NCBI GenBank assembly: GCA_963724485.1
Contig: CAVRUW010000018.1
Coordinates: 66,215-130,214, forward strand
Source of the DNA: an uncultured Acidobacteriota bacterium
GTDB lineage: Bacteria; Acidobacteriota; Vicinamibacteria; Vicinamibacterales; UBA2999
Direction of reading: 5' to 3'
Length of the DNA: 64,000 nt
The translations under genes and the position numbers were made by a program. The notes under the pieces are model-generated. The model was not told the DNA's origin, made no database searches, and was given only the letters and a program-made list of their open reading frames with translations. Below, piece by piece: positions 1,470 to 62,827 of this stretch; within the stretch, counting starts at the first letter, position 1, and each line of letters starts with the position of its first letter.

Positions 1470-1720
1470 CTTCGAGCCGCGATCGGCGCTCAACGGGGTT
1501 CGCTGCTTCGATTGATCGTTCGGCAAGGCTTGGTCACCGCCGCCATTGGCGTCATCGTCGGCATCGGCGCCAGCATCGCCGCGACACAAGGCTTGGGAGC
1601 GATGCTGTATGAAACCCGGCGAACGATCCGCAACGTTCGCCATCACGGGCACGCTCCTGCTGGTCGTCGCAACGGTGGCCGCTTACTCCCGGCCCGGCTC
1701 TAGCGCAGAATCCAGCTGAA
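1470..1720 (+). pseudogene. 3' remnant of an FtsX/ADOP-type ABC permease gene, multiply frameshifted and lacking the N-terminal part
   Basis: GAQRGSLLRLIVRQGLVTAAIGVIVGIGASIAATQGLGAMLYE parallels the C-terminus of the intact copy at 44912..47548 (LGASRWDIVRLVLTRGLLMAGGGLLVGLIGSIGSAQLLRRFLF). The following motif pieces NDP, ATFAITGTLLLVVATVAAY and LPARL lie in three different frames. The remnant starts right after the mtaD stop. Confidence 0.55.
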
Positions 1721-1784
1721 CCTTCGTGAGAACCTCCGTAAAGAACCACCGTAAAGACCTTCGAAAAGAACCCCCGTTCAAACC
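1718..1784. repeat. Array of 6 GAACC-type words with a 12-13 bp period (unit about GAACCTCCGTAAA) upstream of hrcA
   Basis: Words at 1718, 1730, 1743, 1756 (GACC), 1768 and 1780 (AAACC). Same unit as the rpsT-upstream array at 14393..14556. Confidence 0.75.
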
Positions 1785-1794
1785 CCTGCTATAA

Positions 1795-1821
1795 TTAGCA
1801 GTCGAGACTCTCGACTGCTAA
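1795..1821 (+). promoter_or_regulatory. CIRCE operator (HrcA binding site), preceded by a TATAAT box at 1790..1795
   Basis: TTAGCAGTC-N9-GACTGCTAA is a perfect inverted repeat matching the CIRCE consensus TTAGCACTC-N9-GAGTGCTAA. It ends 1 nt before the hrcA ATG. Confidence 0.9.
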
Positions 1822-7202: not shown

Positions 7203-7239
7203 GGGGTGAGTATACGGAGAGGCTCTATACTTTGCAGAC

Positions 7240-8262
7240 ATGTTTCTCCGCGGCCAGACCATTGGAAAGTACCGCATCGTCACGCCGCTCGGAAGTGGAG
7301 GCTTCGGTGCCGTCTACCTTGCGGAGGACACCTGGATTGACAAGAAGGTCGCGATCAAGATTCCCCATCGTCAGAACCTGGACTTCGGGGAGCTGTTGCG
7401 CGAGCCTCGATTGCTCGCCAGCCTGAATCATCCCAACATCGTCACGGTCCTGACCGCCGAAAAGCAGGACAACACGTTCTTCATCGTGATGGAGTACGTC
7501 GCCGGTGAAACCCTCGAGCAGATCATCGAGCGCGAGGGTGCCCTCGACCTGGCCCGAGCGCTCGATTACACCTGCCAGATCAGCAACGCGATGGATCACG
7601 CGCACCGGCAAGGGGTCATTCACCGGGATCTGCGGCCTGGCAACGTCCTCGTCACCGAGAACGGTATGGTCAAGGTCGCTGACTTCGGTACCTCCCGCTT
7701 TCTGGAGATCGCCGCGCACGGGACGACCGTGATCGGCAGTCCTCCGTACATGGCGCCCGAACAGTTTCAAGGCAAGGCGGTGTTCTCGTCGGATATCTAC
7801 TCGCTCGGGGTGACGATGTATCAGATGCTGACCGGGTCGTTGCCGTACGCGACGCCATCGGCCGCCGACCTCGAGAAGCTAATCAAAGGCGATCTCGCGC
7901 CGCCCCCGCGCACGCGCAACCGAAAGATCCCGAAAGGCATCAGCGACATCGTCATGAAGGCGATGGCGCCAGAGATCCCAGCGCGTTACCAACGTGCTTC
8001 CGAGGTGCTCGACGCCGTTCTCGCGGCGCGGGACAATCGCCCGACCGCCACCCGAACCACCCCGCCCGTCGCCGCTGACGGACAGGCGAGCCGGCGGCCG
8101 TGGCGTCCCGCGCCACTCGACAGTCCCGGGCCGGAGCACGTGGACGACATTCAGGCGCGGCTCAAAGCTCGCGAAGCGCCGCAGGCCCGATTTTGTTGGC
8201 ACTGTCACAAGGCCCTCCATGCCCGAACCGATCAATGTCCTTTCTGTGGCGAGGCCCAGTGA
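7240..8262 (+). CDS. Hanks-type Ser/Thr protein kinase with a C-terminal zinc-ribbon
   Basis: GxGxxG loop (LGSGGFGAVY), AIK, HRDLRPGN, DFG and APE motifs. C-terminal CWHCH...CPFCG. No transmembrane segment. Confidence 0.85.
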   Translation: MFLRGQTIGKYRIVTPLGSGGFGAVYLAEDTWIDKKVAIKIPHRQNLDFGELLREPRLLASLNHPNIVTVLTAEKQDNTFFIVMEYVAGETLEQIIEREGALDLARALDYTCQISNAMDHAHRQGVIHRDLRPGNVLVTENGMVKVADFGTSRFLEIAAHGTTVIGSPPYMAPEQFQGKAVFSSDIYSLGVTMYQMLTGSLPYATPSAADLEKLIKGDLAPPPRTRNRKIPKGISDIVMKAMAPEIPARYQRASEVLDAVLAARDNRPTATRTTPPVAADGQASRRPWRPAPLDSPGPEHVDDIQARLKAREAPQARFCWHCHKALHARTDQCPFCGEAQ

Positions 8263-8390
8263 CGGATGACGCGTATTCATCCGCAAGTGTGAAAAGATTC
8301 ATCGGCGGGTCGCCCGGAGGCGGCGTGCCGAATCGGCCGATGCACGATAATTAGAGGAGATCCTCAATCATTCGCTTTTGGGAGTAGCTC

Positions 8391-9332
8391 ATGGCTTTCA
8401 GCGAGACCGGCAAAGTCTGGATGAACGGTAAGCTCGTGGACTGGAAGGACGCGACGATGCACGTGGCCTCACACGTCGTCCACTATGGCTCTGGCGTGTT
8501 CGAAGGCATTCGTTCTTATGATTCCAAGAAGGGCGCCAACGTCTTCCGGCTGCCCGAGCACATGCGGCGGCTCATGGATTCGTGCCGCGTCTACCGGATG
8601 GAGCTGTCCTACACGATGGAGCAGCTCAATGACGCCGTGCTGGAAACGATTCGGGCCAACAACTTCAAGTCGTGCTACATCCGCCCGCTGATCTATCGAG
8701 GTTACGGTCAGCTGGGGGTCAACCCGATGCCCTGCCCCGTCGAGGCCGCCGTGATCGTCTGGGAATGGGATTCGTTCCTCGGAGAAGATGCGCTGGCCAA
8801 AGGGGTGGACGTGGGCGTGAGCTCCTGGACGCGGATTGCGCCCAACACGTTCCCCGCTATGGCCAAGGCGACCGCCAACTACGCGAACTCCGCTCTGATC
8901 AAGATGCAGGCGACCGTCGACGGCTACGCCGAGGGCATCGCTCTCGACGAATCCGGACTTCTCAGCGAAGGCAGCGGCCAGAATCTGTTCCTGGTCCGCG
9001 ACAACGTCGTCTATACCCCGTCGCTGACCTCGTCGATTCTCCAGGGGATCACCCGTGATACGGTGATCACGCTCACGCGCGATCTCGGTTTCGAGGTCAG
9101 AGAACAAGCCCTTCCGCGCGAGTTCCTGTATCTGGCCGACGAAGCGTTCTTCTGCGGAACGGCCGTCGAGATCACCCCGATCCGGTCGATCGACAAGGTG
9201 ACGGTCGCCAACGGCCGGCGTGGACCGGTCACTGCTGCATTGCAGGAGCGCTTCTTCGGCATCATCAAGGGCGACTTGCCCGATGAGCACAACTGGTTGA
9301 CGCCGGTTGGAGCAGCGGTCGCTGCCAAGTAG
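8391..9332 (+). CDS. ilvE: Branched-chain amino acid aminotransferase
   Basis: 313 aa. Class IV aminotransferase motifs (HYGSGVFEGIR, KATANYANS, EGSGQNLF, GITRD). Confidence 0.9.
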   Translation: MAFSETGKVWMNGKLVDWKDATMHVASHVVHYGSGVFEGIRSYDSKKGANVFRLPEHMRRLMDSCRVYRMELSYTMEQLNDAVLETIRANNFKSCYIRPLIYRGYGQLGVNPMPCPVEAAVIVWEWDSFLGEDALAKGVDVGVSSWTRIAPNTFPAMAKATANYANSALIKMQATVDGYAEGIALDESGLLSEGSGQNLFLVRDNVVYTPSLTSSILQGITRDTVITLTRDLGFEVREQALPREFLYLADEAFFCGTAVEITPIRSIDKVTVANGRRGPVTAALQERFFGIIKGDLPDEHNWLTPVGAAVAAK

Positions 9333-10441
9333 TGGACCTCGACGATCTGCTGAAGCTGGCGGTCCAGCGCGGGGCCTCAGACGTCCACCTCAAAGTGGGC
9401 AACGTCGCGATGGCCCGGGTGAATGGCCAGCTCCAGCCGATCGGCGATCGCAAGCTGGACGCTGGCGAGCTCGCGGCGATGGCAAGCGCCATCCTGCCGT
9501 CTTCCGTCAGCGATCGATTCGGACCCAATCAGGAGCTCGACTTCGCCCATAGCGTGTCGGGCGTCGGCCGTTTTCGCTGCAACGCGTTCCATCAGCGAGG
9601 CAGCATCGGGCTCGTCCTTCGTGTCATCCCCGTCAACATCAAACGTCTCGACGAGCTTGGACTGCCAGCGATCTTGAAAGAGATTGCGGAGGAAGAGCGC
9701 GGGCTGGTGTTGGTCACCGGCACCACCGGGAGCGGCAAGAGCAGCACGCTCGCGGCTATGCTCGATCACATCAACCGGTCACGACCCGGTCACATTGTCA
9801 CGGTCGAGGACCCCATCGAGTTCCTGCATCGCGACCAGTCCTGCATCGTGAATCAGCGTGAGATTGGCCAGGACACGCAATCGTTTGCGACCGCACTTCG
9901 GAGTGCGCTCCGTCAGGATCCCGATGTCATCTTCGTAGGCGAGATGCGGGACGTGGAAACCATCGAGACTGCCCTGCACGCCGCCGAGACCGGCCATCTG
10001 GTGCTCTCGAGCCTGCACACACTCGACGCCAAGGAAACGATCAACCGCATCATTTCGGTGTTCTCACCGCACCAACAGGCCCAGATTCGTCAGCAGCTCG
10101 CTGCAGTCTTGAAAGCAGCCATCGCACAACGGCTCTTGCCGACGGCCGATGGCAGTCGCCGAGTACCGGCGGTCGAAGTGCTGGTTGCGACACCGTACAT
10201 CCGCGATTGCATCGCGGATCCGCAAAAGACCGACCTCATTACCAACGCCTTGGCGCAAGGTACATCGCAGTACGGCACCCAGACTTTCGATCAGTCGATC
10301 TTCGGCCTGTACTCGGCTGGCATCGTCACTCTCGACGAAGCCTTACGCTGGACATCGAACCCCGACGAGTTCAAGCTCAAGGTTCAGGGGGTTTCGAGCA
10401 CTGCGGATCAGGCACCCTCGATCGAACGATTCAGCAACTGA
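9332..10441 (+). CDS. pilT: Type IV pilus twitching-motility ATPase PilT
   Basis: Walker A GTTGSGKSST, Asp box, Walker B and His box. The AIAQRLLP motif is typical of PilT. Confidence 0.9.
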   Translation: MDLDDLLKLAVQRGASDVHLKVGNVAMARVNGQLQPIGDRKLDAGELAAMASAILPSSVSDRFGPNQELDFAHSVSGVGRFRCNAFHQRGSIGLVLRVIPVNIKRLDELGLPAILKEIAEEERGLVLVTGTTGSGKSSTLAAMLDHINRSRPGHIVTVEDPIEFLHRDQSCIVNQREIGQDTQSFATALRSALRQDPDVIFVGEMRDVETIETALHAAETGHLVLSSLHTLDAKETINRIISVFSPHQQAQIRQQLAAVLKAAIAQRLLPTADGSRRVPAVEVLVATPYIRDCIADPQKTDLITNALAQGTSQYGTQTFDQSIFGLYSAGIVTLDEALRWTSNPDEFKLKVQGVSSTADQAPSIERFSN

Positions 10442-10454
10442 GAACCTCACAGGC

Positions 10455-10919
10455 GTGGACTGCTACACCGCCGCACTGACTCTGCTTTCCCGGCGCGAAC
10501 TTTCGACTCGACAGCTTCGCGATCGACTCGTCCGCCGGAAGTTCTCTGCCGACGAAATCGAGCCAGTGATTGCGCGGCTGACCCAGGACGGAACGCTGGA
10601 CGACCGGCGAGTGGCCCGCGCGTCCGCCCGTTCAGGCGCCGTCATCAAGCGGCGCGGACGGCGACGGGTGCTGCAAGAGGTCAAACAACTGGGGATTGGT
10701 GCGGCGACCGCGAAGGAAGCGGTAGATGACGTGTTCGCGGAAGTCGACGAGATCGCTCTTCTCGACCGAGCGATCGAGCGACGGCTCAAGGGCGTCGCCG
10801 CCGCCGATCTCGATCGGCAGGGCCGTGCTCGAGTCGTCCGCAGTCTGGTGGGTCAGGGTTTCGATGCATCGCAGGTCTACGCTCGCCTTCGGGCCAGGGG
10901 CGCCGAACGCGACGAGTAA
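10455..10919 (+). CDS. recX: Recombination regulator RecX
   Basis: ALTLLSRRELSTRQLRDRLVRRKF... matches the three-repeat RecX pattern. GTG at 10455 was chosen because the longer ORF overlaps pilT. Confidence 0.8.
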   Translation: MDCYTAALTLLSRRELSTRQLRDRLVRRKFSADEIEPVIARLTQDGTLDDRRVARASARSGAVIKRRGRRRVLQEVKQLGIGAATAKEAVDDVFAEVDEIALLDRAIERRLKGVAAADLDRQGRARVVRSLVGQGFDASQVYARLRARGAERDE

Positions 10920-10928
10920 AATAGAAGC

Positions 10929-13616
10929 GTGCACCCTAACGAGATCCGCGCGTCGTTTCTGAAATATTTCGAGCGCCACAATCACCGCGTCGTTCCGAGC
11001 TCACCGCTGGTCCCATCTGATGATCCGACGTTGCTCTTCACCAACGCCGGGATGAACCAGTTCAAGGACGTGTTTCTCGGGCGTGAGAAGCGGGACTATG
11101 CGCGCGCAGCCTCCTCACAGAAGTGCATGCGGGTCAGCGGCAAGCACAACGACCTCGACACCGTCGGTCCATCACAACGGCACCACACGTTTTTCGAAAT
11201 GCTCGGGAACTTTTCGTTCGGCGACTACTTCAAGACAGAGGCCATTCCGATGGCCTGGCAGCTGCTCGTGGACGAGTGGAAGCTCGATCCAAAACGACTC
11301 GTCGCGACCATCTTCAAGGGCGAGCAAGGCATTCCGCGTGACGACGAGGCGTACGACATCTGGCGACAGTTCCTGCCCGCCGAGCAGATCCACGAGCTCG
11401 GGATGAGCGACAACTTCTGGGCGATGGGCGACACCGGGCCCTGCGGACGCTGCTCCGAAATCTATTACGACCGTGGAACGGCCGTGCCAGGCACGGGTGA
11501 TTTCGTGGCCGATACCGCGAGCGGTTCCGAACGCTTCGTCGAGATCTGGAACAACGTCTTCATGGAATTCGAGCGGCAGGCCGATGGCACCCTGCGTGAC
11601 CTGCCCGCGCGCTCCATCGACACGGGCATGGGGCTCGAGCGCATTTCGGCGGTGCTGCAAGGCGTCCTGTCCAACTACGACACCGAGCTGTTCCAACCGA
11701 TCCTGCGCACGCTCTCGGCCATGGCCTCGCTCCCGTATCGGGGTGGCATGGACGCAAGCGACGTCTCGATGCGTGTGGTGGCGGACCATATCCGCGCCAC
11801 TACGTTTCTCATCGGCGATGGTGTCGTGCCGTCGAACGAATGGCGTGGCTACGTCCTTCGCAAGATCATGCGGCGTGCGATGCGGCATGGGCGGAAGCTG
11901 GGGTTGAAGGACCCGTTCATGTTCAAGCTCGTCGACGTGGTCGTCGACGAAATGGGCGGCGCCTACCCCGAGCTCCGTTCGAGCCGCGACACGATCGCCC
12001 AAGTCGTTCGAAGCGAGGAGGAGCGATTCGGCATCGTCCTCACCGAAGGCCTGCCAAGGCTCGAGGAAGTTCTCGAGCAGGCGGCCCGTGGCGACAAGGT
12101 CGTGCCCGGCGAAGAGGCGTTCAAGCTGTACGACACATACGGCCTACCCAGGGACTTCATCGAGGATCTGACCAGCGCTCAGGACCTGCGCTTCGATACC
12201 GATGGCTTCGAACAGGCCATGCAGCGACAACGTGAGATGGCGCGAGGCAAAAGCGCTTTCTCTGGCGCGCAGAAGGTTGCGTGGAACACTCGGCCGGAGG
12301 CCGGTGGGGACCTCCAGACACCAGACGATTTCCGCGGTTACGACTCCATCTCGGTCAATACGCAAATCATCGAGCTGCTCAAGGAATCCGATGATCAGCG
12401 AGTCCCCGTCGACGAGCTTCACGAGGGAGAGCATGGGTTTGTCGCGCTCGTAGCGACGCCTTTCTATCTCGAATCAGGCGGCCAGGTTTCGGACACCGGG
12501 TCATTGCAATCGCCCACCGCCGAAGCCCGAATCACGGGAGTCCTCAAGGCGGGAGCACTACGCCGATTCCATCGCGTCGAGGTCACGCGGGGCGTCCTGA
12601 GGTTCCGCGATCTGGTTACGGTCACCGTGGACGAGGCGCTTCGAGATGCGACGCGACGTAACCACACTGCCACCCATTTGTTGCACGCCGCTCTCCGCGC
12701 CGTACTCGGTGACCACGTGAAGCAAAAGGGCTCGCTCGTGGCACCAGATCGGTTGCGGTTCGACTTTGCGCACTTCAACCCAGTGACACCGGAGGAGCGA
12801 GCGAGAGTCGAACGGCTCGTTACCGAGCACATCGTCGCCAACACCCCAGTTGCGACTGACGTTCGGGATACGCAGGAAGCAATCGCTGCCGGCGCCATGG
12901 CACTCTTCGGCGAGAAGTACGGCGATCGGGTCCGCGTGGTGACCATTCCCGGATTCAGTGTCGAGTTGTGCGGAGGCACTCACGTGCGCTCGACTGGCGA
13001 TATTGGTCCGTTCTTCATCACCGAGGAATCCGGCGTGTCAGCGGGCGTCCGCCGGATCGAAGCCGTCACCGGTCTTGGCGCTTATGACCATGCCAGGACG
13101 AGACTCACCCAGTTTGATGGTGCGCTCGGCTTGCTTGGCGCAAGACCGGACGGACTGGTCGAGACGATCTCCCTTCACCTCGCGTCAGAGTCAAAGTTGC
13201 GCAAAGAGGTCCAGCAGCTCAAGACGCGCTTAGCGGTTGGCGGCGGCGCAGCCGGAGAATCCGATGATCGCGTCGACATCAAAGGCGTGACGTTCATCGC
13301 GCGACGTGTCGAAGATACCGACAAAGAATCGCTGCGCGCGCTTGCGGACGCGCTGAAGTCGAAGCTGAAGACGGGCATCATCTTTTTGGCTGCGCCGTCC
13401 GCCGAGGGACGGGTCGCAATCATTGCGTCAGTGACGCAGGATCTCACCAAGCGCACCCCCGCGGGTCAGTTGGTCAAACAGCTCGCACCCATCGTCGGTG
13501 GCGCGGGCGGCGGCCGACCAGACTTCGCAGAAGCGGGCGGCAAGGACGCATCCAAGATCAACGAATTGCTGATCGCCAGCCGCCGGCTGGTTGAAGAGCT
13601 GTTGGCCACTTCCTGA
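10929..13616 (+). CDS. alaS: Alanine--tRNA ligase
   Basis: 895 aa. Class II core (FTNAGMNQFK, QKCMR..GKHNDL), editing-domain HTATHLL...CGGTH, and a C-terminal DHHA1 domain. Confidence 0.97.
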   Translation: MHPNEIRASFLKYFERHNHRVVPSSPLVPSDDPTLLFTNAGMNQFKDVFLGREKRDYARAASSQKCMRVSGKHNDLDTVGPSQRHHTFFEMLGNFSFGDYFKTEAIPMAWQLLVDEWKLDPKRLVATIFKGEQGIPRDDEAYDIWRQFLPAEQIHELGMSDNFWAMGDTGPCGRCSEIYYDRGTAVPGTGDFVADTASGSERFVEIWNNVFMEFERQADGTLRDLPARSIDTGMGLERISAVLQGVLSNYDTELFQPILRTLSAMASLPYRGGMDASDVSMRVVADHIRATTFLIGDGVVPSNEWRGYVLRKIMRRAMRHGRKLGLKDPFMFKLVDVVVDEMGGAYPELRSSRDTIAQVVRSEEERFGIVLTEGLPRLEEVLEQAARGDKVVPGEEAFKLYDTYGLPRDFIEDLTSAQDLRFDTDGFEQAMQRQREMARGKSAFSGAQKVAWNTRPEAGGDLQTPDDFRGYDSISVNTQIIELLKESDDQRVPVDELHEGEHGFVALVATPFYLESGGQVSDTGSLQSPTAEARITGVLKAGALRRFHRVEVTRGVLRFRDLVTVTVDEALRDATRRNHTATHLLHAALRAVLGDHVKQKGSLVAPDRLRFDFAHFNPVTPEERARVERLVTEHIVANTPVATDVRDTQEAIAAGAMALFGEKYGDRVRVVTIPGFSVELCGGTHVRSTGDIGPFFITEESGVSAGVRRIEAVTGLGAYDHARTRLTQFDGALGLLGARPDGLVETISLHLASESKLRKEVQQLKTRLAVGGGAAGESDDRVDIKGVTFIARRVEDTDKESLRALADALKSKLKTGIIFLAAPSAEGRVAIIASVTQDLTKRTPAGQLVKQLAPIVGGAGGGRPDFAEAGGKDASKINELLIASRRLVEELLATS

Positions 13617-13677
13617 CGGGCCGATACCCCTTTACGAGAATCCTCGCGCGCCCCTCGTCGCGCGATTTCCTGCAACC

Positions 13678-14382
13678 ATGCGCAGTCTCTGGCTTCTGCC
13701 GTTCGTCTGCCTCGCGATGGCCCAACCGGCCTTTGCGCAGATCTACACCTGGCGCGACGATGCCGGGCATCTGGTGCTGTCGAACAAACCGCAGGCTGGC
13801 GCCACAGAGGTGGCAACCTATGCCGTTCCCGGCCGGTCGATGATGCGCACGACGACACCGCCGGCGAAGGCTCAGACGCGCGCACGGTACGACGATCTGA
13901 TCGAGCAACATGCCGCCAACCACGGCCTGTCACCCGACTTGGTGCGAGCAGTGATTCAAGCCGAGTCCGGGTTCAACCCACGCGCGATTTCTGCGAAGGG
14001 CGCCATGGGCCTGATGCAGTTGATGCCGGCCACGGCCCGCGAACTGGGCGTCAACGACCCGTTCCGTCCGGACGACAACATCCGCGGAGGCGTCTCCTAT
14101 CTCGCGCAGCTGATGACCCGCTACAACCAGAATCTCGAGCTTGCCCTCGCCGCTTACAACGCCGGCCCTGGCAACGTCGAGCGCTACGGGGCCGTGCCAC
14201 CCTTCCGCGAGACTCGCGCCTATGTGAAGAAGATTACGGGCGCCACATCTTCGAGCAAGCCCCCGGCGCCGCGTGGGCCGGTCATCTACAAGTGGGTGGA
14301 AGTCGTGGATGGCAAGTCGCGCACCCGCTACTCGAATATCCCGCCTCGGGAAGGCGAATACGAGATCGTCGGACGACGATAA
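13678..14382 (+). CDS. Lytic transglycosylase (SLT domain) with a signal peptide and DUF4124-like terminal segments
   Basis: Signal MRSLWLLPFVCLAMAQPAFA. SLT catalytic region QAESGFNPRAISAKGAMGLMQLMPATA...AYNAGPGNV. IYTWRDDAGHLVLSN and IYKWVEVVDGKSRTRYSN at the ends. Confidence 0.8.
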   Translation: MRSLWLLPFVCLAMAQPAFAQIYTWRDDAGHLVLSNKPQAGATEVATYAVPGRSMMRTTTPPAKAQTRARYDDLIEQHAANHGLSPDLVRAVIQAESGFNPRAISAKGAMGLMQLMPATARELGVNDPFRPDDNIRGGVSYLAQLMTRYNQNLELALAAYNAGPGNVERYGAVPPFRETRAYVKKITGATSSSKPPAPRGPVIYKWVEVVDGKSRTRYSNIPPREGEYEIVGRR

Positions 14383-14392
14383 GCTCCACTGA

Positions 14393-14556
14393 GGTTCTCC
14401 GCGGAGGTTCTACACAAAGGTTCTACACAAGGGTTCGCCGTTGGTGCGAACCGTCGAAAAGAACCACCCCAAGAACCTCCGTCAAGAAGCTCCGTGGAGA
14501 ACCCTCCGTGGAGAACCTCCGTTAAGAACCTCAGTGACGAACCATCGGCTAGAACC
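14393..14556. repeat. 13-unit phased array: 4 x GGTTC then 9 x GAACC (one is GAAGC), period 13 bp, palindromic about roughly 14442
   Basis: GGTTC starts at 14393, 14406, 14419 and 14432. GAACC starts at 14448, 14461, 14473, 14486, 14499, 14513, 14526, 14539 and 14552. Units such as GAACCTCCGTCAA/GAACCTCCGTTAA are nearly identical to the hrcA-upstream units. Confidence 0.85.
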
Positions 14557-14611
14557 GTGTAAAATAGTGGATTCAGTCGGCTCCCTGACAGGAGCCCTAG
14601 AGGACTAATCT

Positions 14612-14872
14612 GTGGCAAAGCGAAACAAGTCGGCTCTGAAGGCAAACCGGCAGAACGTCAAGCGCCGAGAGGCCAATCGGCGCCTCCGCTCGAAGCTCCG
14701 TACGGGGCTCAAGACCCTCCGGAAGACCGTGGACAGCACTGACAAGGCAGCCGCCAGCACCGCCCTGCAAGGGGCGCAGTCACTGGTCGATCGAATGGCG
14801 ACCAAGGGCATGATCCACCGGAACACGGCCGCCCGTTACAAGTCCCGCCTGTCTGCCCGCGTCGCCAAGTAG
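14612..14872 (+). CDS. rpsT: 30S ribosomal protein S20
   Basis: AKRNKSALKANRQNVKRREANRRLRSKLRT... is the typical S20 N-terminus. GTG start, with GAGGA about 10 nt upstream. Confidence 0.9.
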   Translation: MAKRNKSALKANRQNVKRREANRRLRSKLRTGLKTLRKTVDSTDKAAASTALQGAQSLVDRMATKGMIHRNTAARYKSRLSARVAK

Positions 14873-15136
14873 TTTTGCAATCGGCAGGCCGCGGAAGCCG
14901 ATCCGCGAAATAGGATCTGCGGAACAACAGGATCGACTGGGCGTTCGGTTCGATCGTGGACTTACCGGGCCTTTCGATTCTTCCATGGAATATGGAATCC
15001 GTGCATTCGCACATTGTCTGCGAAACGATGGACACGCTGAGGTTGGTCTTCCCTGAGTGTCGGCGTTCGAATCCGATTCTCCTCACCTTCATTGGCTCTT
15101 CGAGCTGATTTTTGAGGCTCCTCAGCACTAAGCTTG

Positions 15137-15180
15137 TGAAGGTGAAATCAAGGTGCGCCCACCAGGAGCGCCCACCACCA
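15137..15180. repeat. Small word palindrome: AAGGTG x2 then GCGCCCACC x2 (GGTG/CACC words)
   Basis: gtgAAGGTGaaatcAAGGTGcGCCCACCaggagcGCCCACCacca, read directly from the sequence. Confidence 0.5.
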
Positions 15181-15892
15181 TGACGTCCTCGTAGCGATTC
15201 GCCTTTCGCACGCTTACCGAGGGGCGACGCCGCGGCAATCCTGGGATGTGAAATCGACTTGCCCGGCCAGTTCGAAATTGTGGACTCCGCTGGTTTAGCC
15301 TCGAACCAGCAACCCTCCGGTTAACAGGTCATGCAGGTGTTTGAACTCGTGGGTTCTTCGTGTCGGTAGCTCGGACGGGGCCCTGCTGTTACCCGGTGTT
15401 CGGGAGCAAATTGTTCACGATTGTTACCGAGCCTCTTGAGGGCCCAGGCCCGAAACTGCTGGTTCGAATCGCGGGCGTGCAACGGGCGGGTACTTGCGCT
15501 TGTGGAGCGTGGCGCGCGAGCTATTTCAGGGGCTCTCGGCAAAGGCTCCCCGTCCGAGCATTCACGTGTCATCCGAATCCCACCCGGAAGTCAGATCGCC
15601 GGTCGATTCTTGCGGTACGAGTTCGTGATGGCGATCTTGGCGTCGCGAATGACGTAGCTTCAGGAAACGATCGTTCGAGTAGAACCGCAAGTCCGGGAAC
15701 TTCTGATCGCGGAGAGGAATCAGGCCGCCAGCGCAACGTGGGCTCCGAGAACTTCCCAACGTGCGCAACCGCTGTCACATTGCCTATGCGCAAGCCGATC
15801 CGCCGCAGATTGGGCCTCCTCCAGCGAATGGTAGTGGTACGTGCTCTCAGTTTTGATTACCAAACATTAGCGCTGCGCCAGAACTGCCCACG

Positions 15893-17234
15893 TTAGCGGA
15901 CAACTAGTTGTTGTTCGGCCGATAGCCCACTGGCGCCAATGGCGTTGACTCCCCGCACACGAACGTAGTACGTGCCGGGCGGTACAGCATCGAGCGTGAA
16001 CATCGTCTGATCGGAATCCGTGAGAAGGGTGGCTACGACGCGGCCTCCTGGTTGGAGGCTCGCGTCAATCGCGTATGTGTTGGCTGCGGGCGAATGCGCC
16101 GCCAATTGCCATGAGAGTGTCACGCGGCGGTTCGTCGCGCTGACCTTGACGTTCTCAGGCGGAAGCGGAGGCGACGCGATGCCCACACCCGGGAATAACC
16201 CACACGTGCTGGAATAACTAGAGCGCTCAACGGCGCGCATCTGTACATCGATCAGCACTGCTAAACACCGGGCGCCGGGACGAATGTCCCAATTCGCAAT
16301 CGCGACAGCTTTGCGACCATCGGGAGTAAACACAAGGGATGAAAGTGGAATGGGGGCTGATGCGACGTTCGTCAATGTGTCAAATCGGTAAATGCGAGTC
16401 TCCCCAGCTTCGCCGGTAGTGAAGTCAGTGAACAGGAAGCCGGCATATATTTCAGTCCGGGTAGCATTCACGCTCAGGCTCCCAAACCGAGCATGTGCGC
16501 AGCAAGGGGGACCCGTCGGCACGCTGCCCAAGCCGAGCGGCTGCCCCGTCTGTCCGTCATATACAGCAAGAGAAAACTCAAACGGGGACCGATCGCTGAG
16601 TGTCACAAGTCTCGAGCCATCCCCATTTACTTCGATCAGCGACCAAGAATGCGGCTGCGGAAGCACAATCTCACGAACGATTGCTTCCCGCTGCGTGTCA
16701 AACACCTGTACGCGGCCGTCCCCGCACGCGACGAACAACTTAGAGCCATCGAGAGTGATGGCCATGTCACCCGCGCAGGCTGGAGTCTGGCGGAAGCCCG
16801 ACGACTCGATGATGATGAGGCCGACGGTCGTCGCGGCAAACAGCATCGGTTTCCGCGGGTGCCCGACCACGTCCCCTGCAAATCCACCAGGCAATTCACC
16901 TTTCAGGACCGAGCCTGTGACCAGATCGCGCGCGACGAAGCCACCATGTATCAGGAATTGCTGGATGATCTTTCCTGCCATCCACACGACAAGCCGTCCA
17001 TCCGAACTGATCGCTGGCGCGCCGTACCAGTACCCACCCGTCCAGCGGCGGGGTGAGGGCAGACATCACCCAATTCACCGCGCCCGAATCCAAGTCGATG
17101 TCGGTGATTTGTCCCCGATCGTTGAGAGTACCGCCGAAATTCGTGAGAATGACATGTGTCTGGGCGTGGACAGATGTCGTGGCCAGTACGAGGACCAGCA
17201 GGGCCGAGTTCACTGAGCAGAAGAGACGTATCAT
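15893..17234 (-). CDS. Secreted beta-propeller repeat protein with a C-terminal fibronectin type III domain; frame broken near 17030-17046
   Basis: The signal peptide MIRLFCSVNSALLVLVLATTSVHAQ (frame of ORF 16896..17297) continues in another frame as YWYGAPAISSDGRLVVWMAG... (ORF 15893..16987). The C-terminal FN3-like region reads PPENVKVSATNRRVTLSWQ...PPGTYYVRVRGVNAIGASG. Confidence 0.65.
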
Positions 17235-17347
17235 TCGCAAACCTCTCCCTCCGGCGGCGTGTCCTTGCGTAGAAGGAGCATCGGCGGGATGAATCAAGCC
17301 TTCACCGCAGGAGTCTACGACACTTCGATTGCGTCAGATCGGACACC

Positions 17348-17553
17348 ATGGCCAAGAAGACCACACGCAAGACCGACAGGCCGCAGCCAAACGAGAACTG
17401 ATCGACACTGGCAGCGACAAGCGATACGTGCGCCGCGGTGCAAAGGGCCGCTTCAAGTAATCCGACGATGTCGGCAAGTCGCTCACGTCGGATCGCCGTC
17501 GAAAGGCCAAGATCAAGGCGAAACGCGGTCAAGGCGATCGCGGGGATCGCTGA
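17348..17553 (+). pseudogene. Small basic conserved hypothetical protein, disrupted by one frameshift and one in-frame TAA
   Basis: MAKKTTRKTDR.. (frame 1), then AAAKRELIDTGSDKRYVRRGAKGRFK-TAA(17458)-SDDVGKSLTSDRRRKAKIKAKRGQGDRGDR-stop in the next frame. The joined sequence resembles a small lysine/arginine-rich family recalled from other bacteria; the family identity is from memory only. Confidence 0.45.
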
Positions 17554-17914
17554 CCATCGCTGTCCTTGAAGCAGGAAGCAGCTTCTGATCGCTCTCCAGG
17601 CGCGACTCGAGTGATCGCAGTCTCGAGTGTGACGAGTCTGCCAGTGCTGCATTCTCGTCCTCGAGGTACGCCTGTAGTACGAGAGCCCGCACTCGTTCCT
17701 GCGCCGCACATCAGCGACCTTGCGCAGCAACGCAAAGCTGCCGCGATCACCCTTGACTGTGTACTGGTGGGCTGGGAAGGTGACGTTGCGGCCGGTGCCG
17801 CTCCGTCGCTCCCAGAGGGAGAACCCGATCAGATTCAAGCCGCCGAGCACGACGTCGGTGAAACGCAGCCGGCATCCGCGAGTTTGCCGGGCGGGTCAGG
17901 CCGCCTGTCAAGGG

Positions 17915-19169
17915 CTACGAACCGGCCTCGGCCGTTACTTGTGGCGAGGCGAAGCGCGTCCGATTGCCACTTAAGGTCGTGCCAATGAAGGTGTAGCGCA
18001 CGAAGACCTGATACGTCACGAGACAGAAGCTCATGGCGCCACAAACGATGACCGCATACTTCGTGGCGCCAGGCCATGCGACACGCGCTAGGAGTATCTG
18101 CAGTATGACCACGATTGGCAGATGCACCAGATAGCACCAGTAGGACGCGTCAGCCAGCCATCGCACCCACACACGCGGCCGAGAGAGATATCGCACGAAA
18201 CAACCGATGAACAGGAGCGTGAGCTCCCACGTGAGGACTGCACCGCAATAGAGGCTGATAACCCTCAAACCGGGGTCTATCATGTGATCGAGCACTTCGC
18301 GTGCGGCCAAGAAGGCGCATGGAACTGCTGCTATGACGACGATGACGAGCCCGGTCGGGAGCCGATGCCCAAGCTCCGACACGAGGTCACGTCGCCGGTG
18401 GAGAAACCAGCCAACAGCGAGAAACATCCCGTAGTACGCAAGTAGCCGTGGTTGCGGCACCACGCTCAGCGGCGTGTCCGGTAATCCGGGCAGCTCCATG
18501 AACCATAGAACCGATGCCATCGGTAAGGCCATCACGAACGAGAGATACCGTCGCTGGATCGCGCCAGCGAACTGGCTATCGACTCTGCTCGTGAGACGTT
18601 CGACCGATGAATGACGCAGCATCCAAATGATACCGATGACAATCGCGAGTAGTGACAGCCAAATAGTAGAGAAACCAGAGGTGGGCTAGTGACGACACCA
18701 TCGCCGCTCCCATGTCGAAGCGAGGCAGTGCATAACCCGAGGGCTGCACATATCCCGGGATTGCTTGGGAGCCACCCCAGCGCCAGAGTGCGTCGAGTGC
18801 CGGCGACAACAACGGGAGCGCCACGACGAGCGGAACGACAATCCGCTGCACGCGATGCAAGACGAAACCTCCGATCCCCAGACGCACATAGATCAGCCGC
18901 GCGAAGAAACCCGAAAGGAGAAAGAACACCGGCATCCGGAACAGATGGATGACGCCTATAAAGAGATCTGCCGTGATGTTCGCTGAGGGATCCCGGACAG
19001 CCCAGCCGATTGGAGTGACCACGAATGAAGCCGCGGCGTGGAGAAGAACTCCAAGCGACATCGCAGCTGCACGACACGCGTCCAGTGCGTGGAATCTTTC
19101 AGTCGCCGGCACGCATATCACCTTGGAGACAAAGGCAGCATGTTCACGTGAGCCGAGAGCCGATCTCAC
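17915..19169 (-). CDS. Acyltransferase family 3 (integral-membrane O-acyltransferase); frame broken near 18655-18670
   Basis: The N-terminal part RFHALDACRAAAMSLGVLLH...FRMPVFFLLSGFF...HLWFLYYL (ORF 18576..19169) continues in another frame as LSLLAIVIGIIWMLRH...multi-TM...SYWCYLVHLPIV (ORF 17915..18622). Confidence 0.7.
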
Positions 19170-19436
19170 TCTTCACTCCGAGCGCGCTCGCCATTGTGAC
19201 ATAAGGGTGAAACGCAACTCTCAGCAACAAATTGACAGGACCTTCACATCTCGAATGGAGCCTGAACAGGTACAGCCACGGTCGAGACGGTTCAGGTGGG
19301 TCGCAATAGCTACAGCGAGCAGCGACATCACTTCGGCGCTGTCGTATCCCGACAGGCCGCAAAGTCGAAGCGGTCACATCACTTGCTCTCGCGAGCGGTC
19401 AAATCATGTACCCGCTATATTGTGTTCTGTGGGTGG

Positions 19437-19464
19437 TTGACAGGCGCGCGATCGTAGGGATAAT
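19437..19464 (+). promoter_or_regulatory. Sigma70-like promoter candidate for the ligase gene (TTGACA-16-GATAAT)
   Basis: TTGACA at 19437-19442 and GATAAT at 19459-19464, 50 nt upstream of the ATG at 19515. Confidence 0.3.
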
Positions 19465-19514
19465 GGCAGTCGACGAGAGCGCGACCCTCCGGACAACCGA
19501 GTCGATTCGTTCTC

Positions 19515-20900
19515 ATGTCTGTTCTGGAGCAACTTCAGTTCGGCCGGACGCTCAGCCACGTACAGCGGGTTTCTCTGTGGCCGGCTTCGCGAATCCAACG
19601 ACTCCAGGAGCAGCGCTTTCGACATCTGCTCGCTCATACTGTTGCGCGGTCGCCGTTCTATCGGGCGAGGTACGGCAAGATCGATGTCGCTCGAATCCCA
19701 CTCAATCAGCTCCCCCCGGTAAGCAAGGAGGAGTTACGGGAACACTTGGACGCGGTCTTCACTGATCGACGTCTCCGCAGGGACGATCTCGAGCGCTACA
19801 TCGCGGATGAGCAGAACCTTGGGCGCTTGTATCTCGGCGAGTTCGTCGTAGGTTACACCTCCGGCACTCAGGGGACACCGCTTCTCCTCGTGCACCATCG
19901 AAGTTGCCTCCAGCTGATTACCGCGCTGATGGCCACGCGTTCTTCACCGAATGGTGCTCATTCGCTGCTCGACGCCACTCGTCTGATGATCAATCCCAAG
20001 CGGGTCGCCACGATTGCGTTTAGGCGCGGGTTTTATCCTTCCGGGATAGTCCTGGAGTTCATGCCACGGATGCTCGCTCCGTTCGCACGTGTCTCGCACT
20101 TGTCGTCCATGGATCCTGAGCTGGTCGAGCGCCTCAACGAGCTACAACCGCACATCATCACCGGGTATGCCAGCGTACTCGGGGCGCTTGCTCTGCAGGC
20201 CCACGGTTTGCGTCTCTCGAACCTGGAGTTCATCAGGAATTCGAGTGAGCAGCTGTCGTCAGCTGCTAAGACGCGTATCGAAAGCGCATTCGGCGTGAAG
20301 GTGTTCGACCACTACGGAACCGGGGAATGTTTGCACCTGGCCGACACCTGTCGAGACTGCGGCAATTTGCACGTCAATGCCGACTGGGCGATTCTCGAAG
20401 CCGTCGACGACGATTGTCGTCCAGTTCCGGCAGGTACGGTGGGCGCAAAAGTTCTCGTGACGAATCTTGCCAACCGGATTCAACCGTTCATCCGGTACGA
20501 AGTTGGCGATCGCGTCGCGCTCTCCGCGGAGGGGTGTCGCGCGAGCCACCTCCCGCGGATCGAATGCATGGAGGGGCGCTCGGCGGAGGTCTTCTGGGTT
20601 CGCGATGGAGGTCGGGATCGCTTCGTGTCGTGGACCCTGTTCCAAGACGCAGTGGAGGCGGCTGGTGTTCTTCTCGAATGGCGTGCGATTCAGCTGCAGC
20701 GCAATAGCGTAGAGCTGCAGGTACGATTTCTGCCCGGGACGCGTGGGCACGAAGAACGGATCGCCGCAGAACTCAGCGCGAGGCTGTTCGAGTATGGGCT
20801 TCCCACAAGCGTGGCGCTCTCCGTCACGATCGTCGATGAGGTCGCTCCCGACCCGCGAACAGGCAAGATTCGGCGCATGATCAGCCCCGACGCGACGTAA
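19515..20900 (+). CDS. Adenylate-forming enzyme, phenylacetate-CoA ligase / coenzyme F390 synthetase-like (PaaK/CapK family)
   Basis: 461 aa. GYTSGTQGTPLL (AMP-binding P-loop-like), YGTGEC, and an overall length and layout typical of the PaaK-like family. Confidence 0.7.
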   Translation: MSVLEQLQFGRTLSHVQRVSLWPASRIQRLQEQRFRHLLAHTVARSPFYRARYGKIDVARIPLNQLPPVSKEELREHLDAVFTDRRLRRDDLERYIADEQNLGRLYLGEFVVGYTSGTQGTPLLLVHHRSCLQLITALMATRSSPNGAHSLLDATRLMINPKRVATIAFRRGFYPSGIVLEFMPRMLAPFARVSHLSSMDPELVERLNELQPHIITGYASVLGALALQAHGLRLSNLEFIRNSSEQLSSAAKTRIESAFGVKVFDHYGTGECLHLADTCRDCGNLHVNADWAILEAVDDDCRPVPAGTVGAKVLVTNLANRIQPFIRYEVGDRVALSAEGCRASHLPRIECMEGRSAEVFWVRDGGRDRFVSWTLFQDAVEAAGVLLEWRAIQLQRNSVELQVRFLPGTRGHEERIAAELSARLFEYGLPTSVALSVTIVDEVAPDPRTGKIRRMISPDAT

Positions 20901-62742: not shown

Positions 62743-62827
62743 CAGTCTTCAGTTATCAGTTTCCAGTTCAAAGGAAGCTCACAAATTCCCTTTGAACTGA
62801 CAACTGGCAACTGGCAACTGGCAACTG
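62743..62827. repeat. Heptad word palindrome: 4 x CAGT then 5 x ACTG, period exactly 7 bp, with an 11-bp perfect core stem
   Basis: CAGT at 62743, 62750, 62757 and 62764; ACTG at 62796, 62803, 62810, 62817 and 62824. Core stem CAGTTCAAAGG (62764-62774) / CCTTTGAACTG (62789-62799). ACTGGCA is tandem x3. Confidence 0.85.

Follow-up and report, generated by a model that had tools for sequence, protein, structure and literature searches.

REP families are found downstream of coding regions, where they form inverted dimers that prefer one polarity and vary in their spacers (PMC3733652), and REPINs consist of inverted REP pairs (PMC3116915). STRR are dispersed 7-bp tandem repeats whose function is unknown (PMC2670836). 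Our analysis of a 64,000-nucleotide stretch of DNA (the window) revealed that an array of phased pentamers in front of rpsT is one member of a family of intergenic tandem arrays that is lineage-specific and spread genome-wide. Like REP, BIME and REPIN elements, these arrays are high-copy, extragenic and lineage-specific, lie mostly just 3' of coding regions and are sometimes clustered; they also often occur as inverted dimers of one polarity with variable spacers, are not conserved at orthologous sites, and may give dimer transcripts that fold into a large hairpin. However, the unit of REPs (repetitive extragenic palindromes), known from Proteobacteria and other phyla, is a stem-loop or imperfect palindrome of 20-40 bp, whereas the array unit is a 13-bp non-palindromic tandem direct repeat, and, unlike REPs, arrays also lie between divergent genes (28 of 104 array-bearing gaps), have arms that are not kept complementary and have no RAYT-type transposase visible nearby, the few genes that they flank being ordinary. 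REPs often flank a cognate RAYT (Y1 transposase). With STRR, the arrays share the presence of one short unit in tandem at many intergenic loci of one lineage, although the STRR unit is 7 bp long and comes from heterocystous cyanobacteria, whereas the array unit measures 13 bp, contains two constrained words and comes from Acidobacteriota. To our knowledge, neither a strict stop-codon placement nor a tail-to-tail arrangement has been described for STRR.

A second point of comparison is provided by PhoB/OmpR-type repeats and plasmid omega/ParR-type arrays, which are contiguous direct repeats of fixed period that are used in either orientation and in some cases take the place of the −35 region. 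The arrays resemble these operators of cooperative binders in their fixed period, contact-like conserved positions, use of both orientations and occasional replacement of the −35 element, but the operators have periods of 7 or 10-11 bp, whereas the arrays have a period of 13 bp and probably occupy hundreds of loci. In addition, no regulon and no linked regulator gene were found among the listed neighbors of arrays, and no orthologous-promoter conservation was found at the rpsT site.

The array in front of rpsT

The rpsT array (14385-14559) comprises four GGTTC and nine GAACC-type words at a period of 12-14 bp, located in the gap between the stop codon of an SLT-domain gene and rpsT (Table 1). 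On the plus strand, GGTTC begins at 14393, 14406, 14419 and 14432 and GAACC at 14448, 14461, 14473, 14499, 14513, 14526, 14539 and 14552, with GAAGC at 14486, giving word spacings of 13, 13, 13, 16, 13, 12, (13, 13), 14, 13, 13 and 13. These word positions match those of the preliminary description, and the array is far from random: GAACC-N8-GAACC was observed eight times in the window as compared to 0.11 expected, none of 100 shuffles reached eight, and all eight pairs belong either to this array or to another one at 1718-1784. A period of 13 was also called at the rpsT array by Tandem Repeats Finder (TRF). Only one change was found in 65 core positions, whereas CGT is intact in approximately 5 of 12 units and spacer sequences are highly variable. 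The array does not resemble a CRISPR, as had been stated, since CRISPRs have repeats of 23-50 bp with unique spacers of similar length rather than a 13-bp period with semi-conserved spacers of 8 nt.

Table 1. Coordinates of features at the two array loci of the window
Feature	Position	Strand	Description or basis
Array in front of hrcA	1718..1784	+	5-6 units, GAACCTCCGTAAA-like
Extended −10 element of hrcA, TGcTATAAT	1787..1795	+	read from sequence; whole promoter/operator region 1787..1821
Inverted repeat TTAGCAGTC-N9-GACTGCTAA, presumably CIRCE	1795..1821	+	
TAA stop of SLT-domain (lytic transglycosylase) gene 13591-14382	14380..14382	+	ORF list; Pfam SLT 1.7e-32
Left arm of rpsT array	14385..14436	−	4 units (3' ends 14385-14423) and bare GAACC core of an innermost fifth (14432-14436)
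Center spacer gccgttggtgc between tail-to-tail arms	14437..14447		
Right arm of rpsT array	14448..14559	+	9 units GAACC-yyCGT-nnn, one GAAGC; unit length 12-14 nt
Probable −10 box of rpsT, TAAAAT	14560..14565	+	alignment of five orthologous leaders
GGCTCC/GGAGCC hairpin in rpsT leader, then GAGGA ribosome-binding site	14579..14596	+	
rpsT (ribosomal protein S20), GTG start	14612..14872	+	Pfam Ribosomal_S20p 1.3e-23; homologues

The array starts 5 nt past the SLT-gene stop codon, a distance to which the left arm is brought by a fifth, degenerate reversed unit, GAACCTCAGT, at 14388-14397 on the minus strand. It is present in five independent assemblies, all encoding an identical S20 protein, which answers the earlier proviso that it might be missing from other assemblies. 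Near-identical strains differ in the array by whole units, with three or four copies in the left arm and, in one strain (L005), a right arm that is one unit shorter.

At its other end, the array extends into the −35 region of the rpsT promoter with its last two right-arm units, and the penultimate GAACC begins 21 nt ahead of TAAAAT. The earlier suggestion that the last units overlap the likely promoter agrees with the orthologous leaders, which make TAAAAT a reasonable candidate for the −10 box: it aligns with TAGTAT, TATGAT, TATGAT, TATCAT and TACACT in five of them, with the T, A and final T invariant. A scan for consensus σ70 promoters found no full −35/−10 pair at the rpsT array or at the hrcA-side array. 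The GGCTCC/GGAGCC hairpin noted previously does exist in the leader, but at 14579-14596 instead of 14577-14594, and the fold of the leader (14566-14625) was no better than that of shuffles (z = −0.4).

The orthologous SLT-rpsT gap, the only orthologous site compared, lacks an array in four of five related species (L244-L247), all four of which retain the SLT C-terminus and the rpsT −10 box. Truncation of the SLT protein by the array was considered and rejected, because the C-terminus ...YEIVGRR is common to the array-free orthologues.

The second array of the window starts on the TGA (1717-1719) closing a frameshifted FtsX-like remnant and stops 5 nt short of the −10 box of hrcA, whose ATG lies at 1822 and whose product, HrcA, is supported by a Pfam match. 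The inverted repeat at 1795-1821 is one that we take to be CIRCE from the consensus of the HrcA operator, TTAGCACTC-N9-GAGTGCTAA.

Unit and sequence constraint of the array family

Scans of genomes and metagenomes, which favored well-preserved arrays, yielded at least 234 arrays with the same unit in at least 147 loci. The source labels of the listed arrays were almost all Acidobacteriota/Vicinamibacterales, and the only match in a viral collection was an unrelated low-GC phage repeat. A limited literature search found no prior description of a 13-bp repeat family of this kind, which apparently is undescribed so far.

The family unit is 13 bp long, w-GAACC-yy-CGT-s-n, or (GAACCTCCGTnAA)n when written out in tandem. 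Arrays reach up to 17 units, spacing is exactly 13 bp in 928 of 1122 neighboring units (83%) among the arrays listed, and GAACC or GGTTC was present in 226 of the 256 period-13 repeats called by TRF in array loci. In arrays detected blind to the motif, the mismatch per position within arrays was.004,.015,.013,.002,.036,.222,.197,.055,.015,.049,.114,.249 and.057 for positions 1-13, such that wGAACC and CGT vary by 0.2-5.7% per position as compared to 11-25% for positions 6, 7, 11 and 12. The claim that the core word is conserved and the spacers less so therefore extends from rpsT to the family. Older arrays showed the same pattern, with intact core words and 23-42% divergence at the other positions.

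Unit variants are genome-specific. Arrays in different gaps shared variable positions at 60% within a contig but 37.5% between contigs, a difference reached in 0 of 2000 permutations, and at L189, GAACG replaces GAACC in five of six arrays. The only palindromic form of the unit is this L189 sister variant, ACGATCGT, the 13-bp unit GAACCyyCGTsnw itself not being self-complementary. Arrays gain and lose whole units, and unit identity drops equally at both array ends, leading us to reject directional growth at one end. No conserved leader, terminus, center sequence, internal sequence or target duplication was found among the arrays listed. LexA-type boxes have the form GAAC-N4-GTTC, or GAAC-N7-GAAC with an 11-bp period; they were rejected here, because the period is 13 bp and only 7% of units have T at position 11.

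Placement and orientation of the arrays

Placement was assessed with gene calls from a home-made codon model, which were checked only against Pfam matches and the annotated genes of a few database loci. Of the 234 arrays listed, 218 lie outside called genes and 16 inside. As to whether the motif might be randomly distributed, including inside genes, the answer differs for word and array: with arrays masked, the bare word occurs at ~1.0-1.3 per kb about equally in genes and upstream regions, whereas phased arrays alone are intergenic.

Within the intergenic DNA, arrays fill the dispensable sequence from the stop codon to the promoter or leader of the next gene. In 54 co-directional gaps, the median distance was 2.5 nt from array to stop versus 46.5 nt from array to start; the stop codon was nearer than the start in 43 gaps versus 11 (p = 1.4e-5), and the array lay ≤13 nt from the stop codon in 45. 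Stop codons are abutted in both array orientations (median 1 nt each), single arrays between co-directional genes are oriented 16 to 15, and the heads of about half of all listed arrays face gene ends. Some arrays reach to within 11-18 nt of a start codon, and arrays are also found in operon gaps, including one of the sigma/anti-sigma type. Two simpler placement rules were dropped. That the array head always faces the nearest gene did not survive splitting gaps by type (head over tail 37 to 24, p = 0.12, single arrays), and targeting of insertion to TA fails on stop codon usage, TAA/TAG being only mildly enriched (65% vs 51%, odds ratio 1.8, p = 0.02) and TGA making up 28 of the 80 stops abutted by arrays.

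Adjacent arrays are paired with a strong polarity, 41 pairs being tail-to-tail and one head-to-head among the arrays listed. The center gap of pairs ranges from 0 to 70 nt across the family, indicating that there is no fixed palindromic core, and the arms of a pair resemble each other no more than they do other arrays of the genome (0.606 vs 0.600), which led us to reject the idea that arms are kept complementary for a hairpin. About half of the stop-adjoining arrays have no inverted partner. When compared with the hairpin dimers of REP, the family thus combines a polarity of 41 to 1 and a fold of the window pair at z = −6.2 with arms that are unlike and with about half of its arrays single.

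The z-score of the window pair also bears on whether the arrays act as RNA, be it as a TRAP/HutP-like platform, as a loading site for the Rho hexamer or as a terminator or stabilizer hairpin, which we regard as very unlikely. The RNA of 14383-14560 folds at −75.2 kcal/mol versus −49.2 for shuffles, the forward strand of arrays is C-rich with a pyrimidine-rich CCyyC in each unit, and Rho contacts ~13 nt per subunit. Arrays also sit directly past stop codons, where 3'-UTR elements are found, and some reversed units provide a Shine-Dalgarno-like GGAGG 5-10 nt ahead of a start codon, implying that arrays are sometimes transcribed. However, because orientation to the upstream gene is random, transcripts would carry the G-rich or the C-rich strand equally often, and the stop-adjoining arrays that have no inverted partner cannot form a hairpin. 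Further points against an RNA role are the lack of complementarity between arms, the location of the array upstream of the −10 box at both rpsT and hrcA, and the lack of any Rfam match in the whole window, in which a tRNA scan found no tRNA or tmRNA either. TRAP and HutP, which the preliminary description had offered as RNA precedents, do have sites of short conserved words with fixed period and variable spacers, but these are trinucleotides 2-4 nt apart (period 5-6 nt) in transcribed leaders of fixed orientation, whereas the arrays have pentamer and trimer words at 13 nt, upstream of a −10 box and in random orientation (16 to 15); these precedents are therefore a poor match.

The genes adjoining arrays are diverse, with 83 Pfam families among 66 genes. 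Those flanked by arrays include one integrase-core fragment. No transposase-like gene was found consistently near arrays, the flanked genes being ordinary enzymes and transporters. The preliminary description had treated the rpsT array as a binding platform or regulator site and had suggested a test for enrichment at translation or stress genes. That the array serves as a dedicated operator, bound by a regulator of rpsT or of such genes in general, is now extremely improbable, being largely refuted by the orthologue comparison. Such an operator would fit the observations that each window array runs up to a promoter and places a unit at −35, and that 13 of 62 arrays facing a gene start, as compared to 3 of 95 facing a gene end, have a TAnnnT box at 20-22 nt from their last GAACC. 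In contrast, the −10 box and leader are retained without an array at four of five orthologous rpsT promoters; relatives conserve the word and period but not the rpsT site itself. Moreover, the ≥234 arrays in ≥147 loci have unrelated neighbors, downstream genes show no shared theme, ruling against a regulon of array-linked genes, and gene ends are faced by roughly one array in two. No enrichment of solitary GAACC was seen at the −35 distance from −10 boxes; it showed no preferred distance to TAnnnT boxes, where TTGAC gave a weak canonical peak, and we therefore also rejected GAACC as a general −35 element of the lineage.

A different promoter function, which we consider decidedly unlikely, is that the arrays are tandem overlapping promoters of ECF-sigma type, in which GAACC would serve as −35 and the CGT of the next unit as −10, firing outward from the head and producing sense transcripts from arrays facing a gene start and antisense transcripts from those facing a gene end. 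EcfG promoters have the consensus GGAAC-N16-CGTT, in which AAC hardly varies (PMC7083833). In the arrays, the 13-bp period produces the corresponding GAAC-N16-CGT geometry, and both constrained words, which vary by <6%, are the −35 and −10 words of ECF promoters. Solitary GAACC-N16-CGT upstream of genes on the same contigs was found seven times versus ~1.5 per spacing, six cases being CGTC, and the genes with this solitary motif include two orthologous outer-membrane-protein genes. Outward firing would also account for the tail-to-tail pairing, and arrays ending 11-18 nt before a start leave no room for a separate promoter. Nevertheless, ECF promoters, whose −10 word CGT(T/C) stands 16-17 nt from the −35 GGAAC and 6-8 nt ahead of the transcription start, point to the regulated gene, whereas single arrays between co-directional genes face the end of the upstream gene or the start of the downstream gene about equally (16 to 15), and arrays between convergent genes would yield antisense RNA only. 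The spacing is 1 bp under that of the solitary motifs, which peak at GAACC-N16-CGT whereas arrays give N15. In addition, hrcA and rpsT have their own TATAAT-type −10 boxes directly after the array, up to 17 overlapping promoters would have no known precedent, and ~75% of units have A or T rather than G before GAAC. A literature search found no description of a TGAACC-type ECF −35 element.

The arrays may instead be selfish or near-neutral DNA with no host role, either a REPIN-like non-autonomous element or a minisatellite formed by slippage and ectopic conversion, with words kept only as needed by a mobilizing enzyme or by the amplification process; we judge this unlikely but give it some weight. 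The whole-unit copy-number changes between strains, the loss or absence of the rpsT site in related species, and the genome-specific unit variants, including a variant of the core word, are all expected of such DNA, as is the occupation of dispensable DNA only, right up to stop codons and −10 boxes and even in sigma/anti-sigma-type and other operon gaps. Unit identity declines at both ends as in homogenized satellites, and REP dimers and REPINs typically show inverted pairing of a single polarity. In light of these strain differences and the REP-like placement, the earlier statement that the array is unlike slippage products or REP elements was too strong. Against a selfish origin, the arrays lack conserved termini, conserved internal sequence, target duplications and a consistently linked transposase, and the similarity of pair arms (0.606 vs 0.600) gives no indication that a hairpin is selected or that the two arms move together. 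Furthermore, the retention of core words by older arrays that have diverged elsewhere looks like purifying selection in place.

A candidate protein partner

The constancy of the words together with the indifference of array orientation to neighboring genes suggests that the words are most likely read on double-stranded DNA by a protein. Cooperative DNA binding had been proposed as one option, and the constant wGAACC and CGT do fit a sequence-specific protein that would read each unit. We tentatively favor, at somewhat less than an even chance, a family of extragenic repeats resembling REP/BIME or STRR, the units of which would be recognized in duplex DNA by a candidate co-evolving protein. This protein would act in trans and bind one unit per protomer, head to tail, with two arrays in one gap lying tail-to-tail; candidates are an architectural or nucleoid factor and a transposase-like enzyme, which would also spread the arrays. 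At the rpsT locus, the right arm reaches the conserved −10 box, placing a unit where the −35 hexamer would be. There, the array could insulate rpsT from read-through from the SLT gene, the read-through RNA of which would form a long imperfect hairpin, or the bound protein could contact RNA polymerase.

Several observations weigh against this REP- or STRR-like family with a protein partner. No binding protein and no consistently linked transposase-like gene were identified among the loci surveyed; the 13-bp period is off the helical repeat, unlike that of most cooperative DNA binders; the unit is not a palindrome, unlike REPs; and the 28 of 104 array gaps that are divergent would be unusual for REPs. 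The constancy of the words could also stem from biased unit amplification rather than from host benefit.

The two constrained words, the exclusively tail-to-tail pairs, the genome-specific co-variation of words and the units at −35 leave room for another reading, to which we assign a rather low probability: that arrays are polar outward platforms, either ladders of overlapping ECF-type promoters for a single sigma factor, which would turn adjacent genes on by sense or off by antisense transcription, or filaments of a dedicated co-evolving protein, which would mark and insulate gene boundaries.

Implications for Vicinamibacteria

Vicinamibacteria rank with the most abundant bacteria of soil, and their gene control is poorly understood. 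For these genomes, the arrays account for unit-length assembly differences between strains and should be masked in the prediction of promoters and regulatory motifs. The clean grammar of the family, namely two protected words, placement at stop codons, tail-to-tail pairing and genome-specific variants, points to a specific candidate protein partner, and the family could become a tractable model for the origin, spread and upkeep of bacterial extragenic repeats. If the arrays were promoter arrays or boundary elements, they would represent a new way to organize transcription at gene borders; as polar outward platforms, they would constitute a bacterial gene-boundary element without a described counterpart.

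The word array upstream of rpsT and a second array at hrcA

The phased word array reported upstream of rpsT in the preliminary description is confirmed, with every word at the position assigned to it there (see table), steps of 12–14 bp and a period of 13 returned by Tandem Repeats Finder (TRF). The arrangement GAACC-N8-GAACC occurs eight times in the 64-kb window versus 0.11 expected, a count reached by 0 of 100 shuffles. With a fifth, degenerate reversed unit included, only 5 nt separate the left arm from the stop of the SLT-domain gene. All five other assemblies encoding an identical S20 protein carry the array, which is therefore no assembly artefact; reversed units number three or four among them and one assembly lacks one forward unit, and the array therefore changes by whole units.

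Array features in the window
Feature	Position	Remark
TAA stop codon of SLT-domain gene	14380-14382	borders left arm
GGTTC starts (left arm)	14393, 14406, 14419, 14432	
GAACC starts (right arm)	14448, 14461, 14473, 14499, 14513, 14526, 14539, 14552	GAAGC at 14486
TAAAAT	14560-14565	right-arm end; 46 nt upstream of rpsT GTG
Second array, same 13-bp unit (GAACCTCCGTAAA-like)	1718-1784	in front of hrcA

The array is not a device specific to rpsT, as the same unit forms the second array at hrcA and arrays at many loci elsewhere. The hrcA array starts on the TGA terminating a frameshifted FtsX-like remnant and stops 5 nt short of TGcTATAAT, which is followed by what we take to be a CIRCE operator and then hrcA. 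The remnant, an FtsX/MacB-type permease C-terminus (1377-1719), has an amidohydrolase gene (152-1468) on one side and the array on the other, the TGA of its last reading frame overlapping the first GAACC. Two other tandem repeats in the window, of period 8 (GCACCCAA, 6.5 copies, 76-126) and period 7 (AACTGGC, 4.7 copies, 62795-62827), are unrelated to the 13-bp family.

A dispersed family of 13-bp arrays

Scanning one genome per species with four phased GAACC words returned, among the matches listed, many unrelated 13-bp repeats and a separate group built on the unit GAACC-yyCGT-nnn, almost confined among those matches to MAGs labelled Acidobacteriota or Vicinamibacterales. A metagenome scan with this unit added at least 120 further contigs, many of them bearing names that recur in groups and probably stem from a small number of related sample sets. 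The set, which leans towards well-preserved arrays owing to scan selection, comprised 234 arrays of 3–17 units in 147 loci (877 kb) among the matches listed. Of 1122 unit-to-unit spacings in these arrays, 928 were exactly 13 bp and 81 were 12 bp. Genes were called with a home-made codon log-odds model trained on these same loci, and the calls were checked afterwards against strong Pfam matches and, at the rpsT loci, database gene calls.

Typical family arrays also occurred on a 2.6-Mb contig labelled Acidimicrobiia (L099; unit GAACCGTCGTGCT) and a contig labelled Bifidobacteriaceae (L074; unit GAACCTCCGTGAG); either these contigs are mislabelled or misbinned, or the family extends past Acidobacteriota. 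Seven Acidobacteriota/Vicinamibacterales MAGs (L017, L041, L045, L061, L062, L073 and L076) carried GAACC every 7–8 bp (GAACCccGAACCcg...) without the CGT word, and the GAACC word may have significance there beyond the 13-bp family. Two IMG/VR viral contigs of a low-G+C phage (L248, 1-600; L249, 1-580) carried two inverted arrays of the 13-bp unit GAACCAGCGTAGC, in 6 and 8–10 copies on either side of ~380 bp of AT-rich DNA, a layout that looks like an iteron or origin arrangement; this repeat was rejected as a family member, being an unrelated, chance match to the search pattern.

Placement and polarity

Analysis of the 147 loci among the matches listed, using our own codon-model gene calls, placed 218 of the 234 arrays in intergenic regions, the array-bearing gaps being tandem (54), convergent (22) or divergent (28). 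Within the 54 co-directional gaps of this set, median distances from the array were 2.5 nt to the upstream stop and 46.5 nt to the next start codon; the array was nearer the stop in 43 versus 11 gaps (p = 1.4e-5) and within 13 nt of it in 45, and the stop fell inside the first units in 18. Adjacency to the stop codon held for both array orientations (median 1 nt each), and single arrays pointed one way in 16 cases and the other in 15. The rule that the unit head always faces the gene was rejected because it arose from lumping paired arrays together with single ones.

Adjacent opposite arrays among these matches were tail-to-tail (GGTTC...GAACC) in 41 cases versus head-to-head in one. The centre gap of such pairs varied from 0 to 70 nt, and they therefore lack a fixed palindromic core. 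No conserved flanking, terminal or central motif was found at the family loci among the matches listed, where unit identity drops towards either end of the array, the usual picture for homogenised tandem repeats.

The orthologous site in relatives

Starting from S20 homologues, we reached five loci that keep the alaS-SLT-rpsT gene order. One (L243, S20 88% identical) has a tail-to-tail array at the orthologous site with different spacers; in the other four (L244-L247, S20 74–87% identical) the SLT-rpsT gap is 45–106 nt and array-free, and no arrays were found elsewhere in 20 kb of each locus. A TAnnnT box occupies one aligned position in all six sequences (window and five loci), and the SLT C-terminus ...YEIVGR(R/K) is common to all but L244; conserved sequence thus bounds the array on both sides. 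Retention of the -10-type box in the array-free orthologues means that the rpsT promoter can do without the array, so that comparison of orthologous upstream regions also counts against an rpsT-specific function. Truncation of the SLT protein by the array was ruled out by the C-terminus kept in array-free orthologues.

A lone GAACC is present in L244 (~9940-9975), 23 nt ahead of the rpsT -10 box and in alignment with one of the array units in the window; it could be a remaining unit of a lost array or a seed from which an array might form. Following rpsT, the part of the window at ~14900-20500 has a G+C content of 0.58–0.60 versus 0.62–0.64, weak coding signal and only an fn3-like ORF, an acyltransferase fragment and a weak AMP-binding ORF; it stands where L243-L246 have PadR-MacB genes and may be an insertion or decaying island.

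Constraint within the unit

Period-13 arrays were re-detected motif-blind by TRF and each position was scored against its own array's consensus. Among the matches listed, mismatch at positions 1 to 13 was.004,.015,.013,.002,.036,.222,.197,.055,.015,.049,.114,.249 and.057, with a matching profile in more diverged arrays; fixing the register on GAACC slightly favours positions 1–5 and leaves CGT and position 13 unbiased. Drift thus falls on positions 6, 7, 11 and 12, and the words wGAACC and CGT stay constant. At variable positions, arrays agreed by 60% across gaps of one contig versus 37.5% between contigs (0 of 2000 permutations), and the two arms of a pair were 60.6% alike, no more than unlinked arrays of the same contig (all among the matches listed). 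Five of six arrays on contig L189 had GAACG in place of GAACC. Together, the constant words and genome-specific variants indicate that each unit may be recognised sequence-specifically by something differing between genomes, with rapid turnover or exchange among loci.

The L189 arrays (JADMIO012736327.1, ~7196-11516) form a GAACG-core sister family of 13-bp period, with unit GAACGATCGTnnn containing the palindrome ACGATCGT; they fill gaps around genes for an M20-dimerisation-domain protein, a phytase-like protein and an amidase, and also follow a MacB gene.

Recognition as DNA or RNA

The predicted RNA fold across the window pair (-75.2 kcal/mol, z = -6.2) would be expected of any inverted word array. 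About half of the stop-adjacent arrays among the matches listed have no inverted partner, arms are not kept complementary and arrays are randomly oriented with respect to the upstream gene, three points that argue against a general RNA-level role and disfavour the TRAP- and HutP-type precedents proposed earlier. Orientation indifference points instead to recognition on double-stranded DNA, or to the absence of any host function.

Several arrays among the matches listed fill whole gaps inside operons, where the reversed unit (ACGGAGGTTC) places a Shine-Dalgarno-like sequence 5–10 nt before the start codon. At six loci (L118, 734-798; L018, L086, L209, L236 and L238) the array tail lies 0–7 nt from ATG or GTG, and the reversed unit (ACGrrGGTTC) puts a GGAGG- or GAGGG-type sequence at the usual distance, which places these arrays within the leader that would be transcribed with the neighbouring gene; some arrays are thus very probably transcribed. 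In L118, L086 and L236 the array also abuts the preceding stop codon, filling the whole gap.

Arrays and promoters

An array unit occupies the -35 hexamer position at both hrcA (AGAACC, 17-bp spacer, TATAAT with extended TGn) and rpsT (CGAACC, 16-bp spacer, TAAAAT). Among the matches listed, 13 of 62 arrays facing a gene start with sufficient room had a TAnnnT box 20–22 nt from their last GAACC, versus 3 of 95 facing a gene end; one of the 13 lies, by eye, upstream of a putative tRNA gene. Solitary GAACC on the same contigs showed no preferred distance to TAnnnT boxes, TTGAC giving only a weak hint of canonical spacing, and the idea that GAACC serves as the -35 element throughout the lineage was accordingly rejected. 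Either the -35 position tolerates overlapping arrays, or its role is taken by a putative bound factor. Neighbouring genes are diverse (83 Pfam families among 66 genes, among the matches listed), so they form no regulon.

Adjacent units spell GAAC-N16-CGT, and arrays might instead be ladders of ECF-sigma-type promoters, as exemplified by EcfG (GGAAC-N16-CGTT, AAC nearly invariant; PMC7083833). The two constrained words coincide exactly with ECF promoter words, solitary GAACC-N16-CGT is enriched upstream of genes on contigs among the matches listed (7 versus ~1.5 per spacing, six being CGTC), and outward promoter activity would account for paired arrays not facing each other. However, arrays are oriented at random with respect to genes, the spacing after GAACC is N15 in arrays but peaks at N16 in solitary motifs, and hrcA and rpsT each possess a separate -10 box; we consider this minority reading improbable. 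A solitary GAACC-N16-CGTC at 7118-7142 precedes a gene for a Ser/Thr protein kinase (7240-8262) by 98 nt; it resembles an ECF-type promoter but is insignificant alone (2 in the window versus 1.36 expected).

Relation to known repeats and proposed mechanism

REP families are extragenic, mostly downstream of coding regions, and species-specific, and their inverted dimers have family-specific preferred polarity and variable spacers (PMC3733652); in REPINs the doublet is the replicative unit (PMC3116915). STRRs, tandem repeats with a 7-bp unit, are scattered through the intergenic regions of cyanobacteria and have no known function (PMC2670836). The 13-bp family shares the ecology of both but lacks the palindromic stem-loop unit that defines REPs, and differs from STRRs in unit length, bipartite constraint and taxon. 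It belongs to the dispersed extragenic repeat families, outside the REP, CRISPR and TRAP types. A window scan assigned the arrays to no Rfam family, and a limited literature search found no prior description.

The protein-binding platform first proposed finds partial support, in its DNA version and not as an rpsT-specific device; its RNA version is disfavoured. We tentatively favour a concertedly evolving extragenic repeat family, lying between stop codon and next promoter, with 13-bp units read on duplex DNA by a putative co-evolving protein. This reading builds on the distribution, placement, pair polarity, position-specific constraint, genome-specific variants and site lability of the arrays; from these we infer the protein's existence and nature, any effect on transcription and the way arrays spread. 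Arrays would colonise dispensable DNA from the stop codon to the next promoter, where their units would be bound on duplex DNA by this putative protein.
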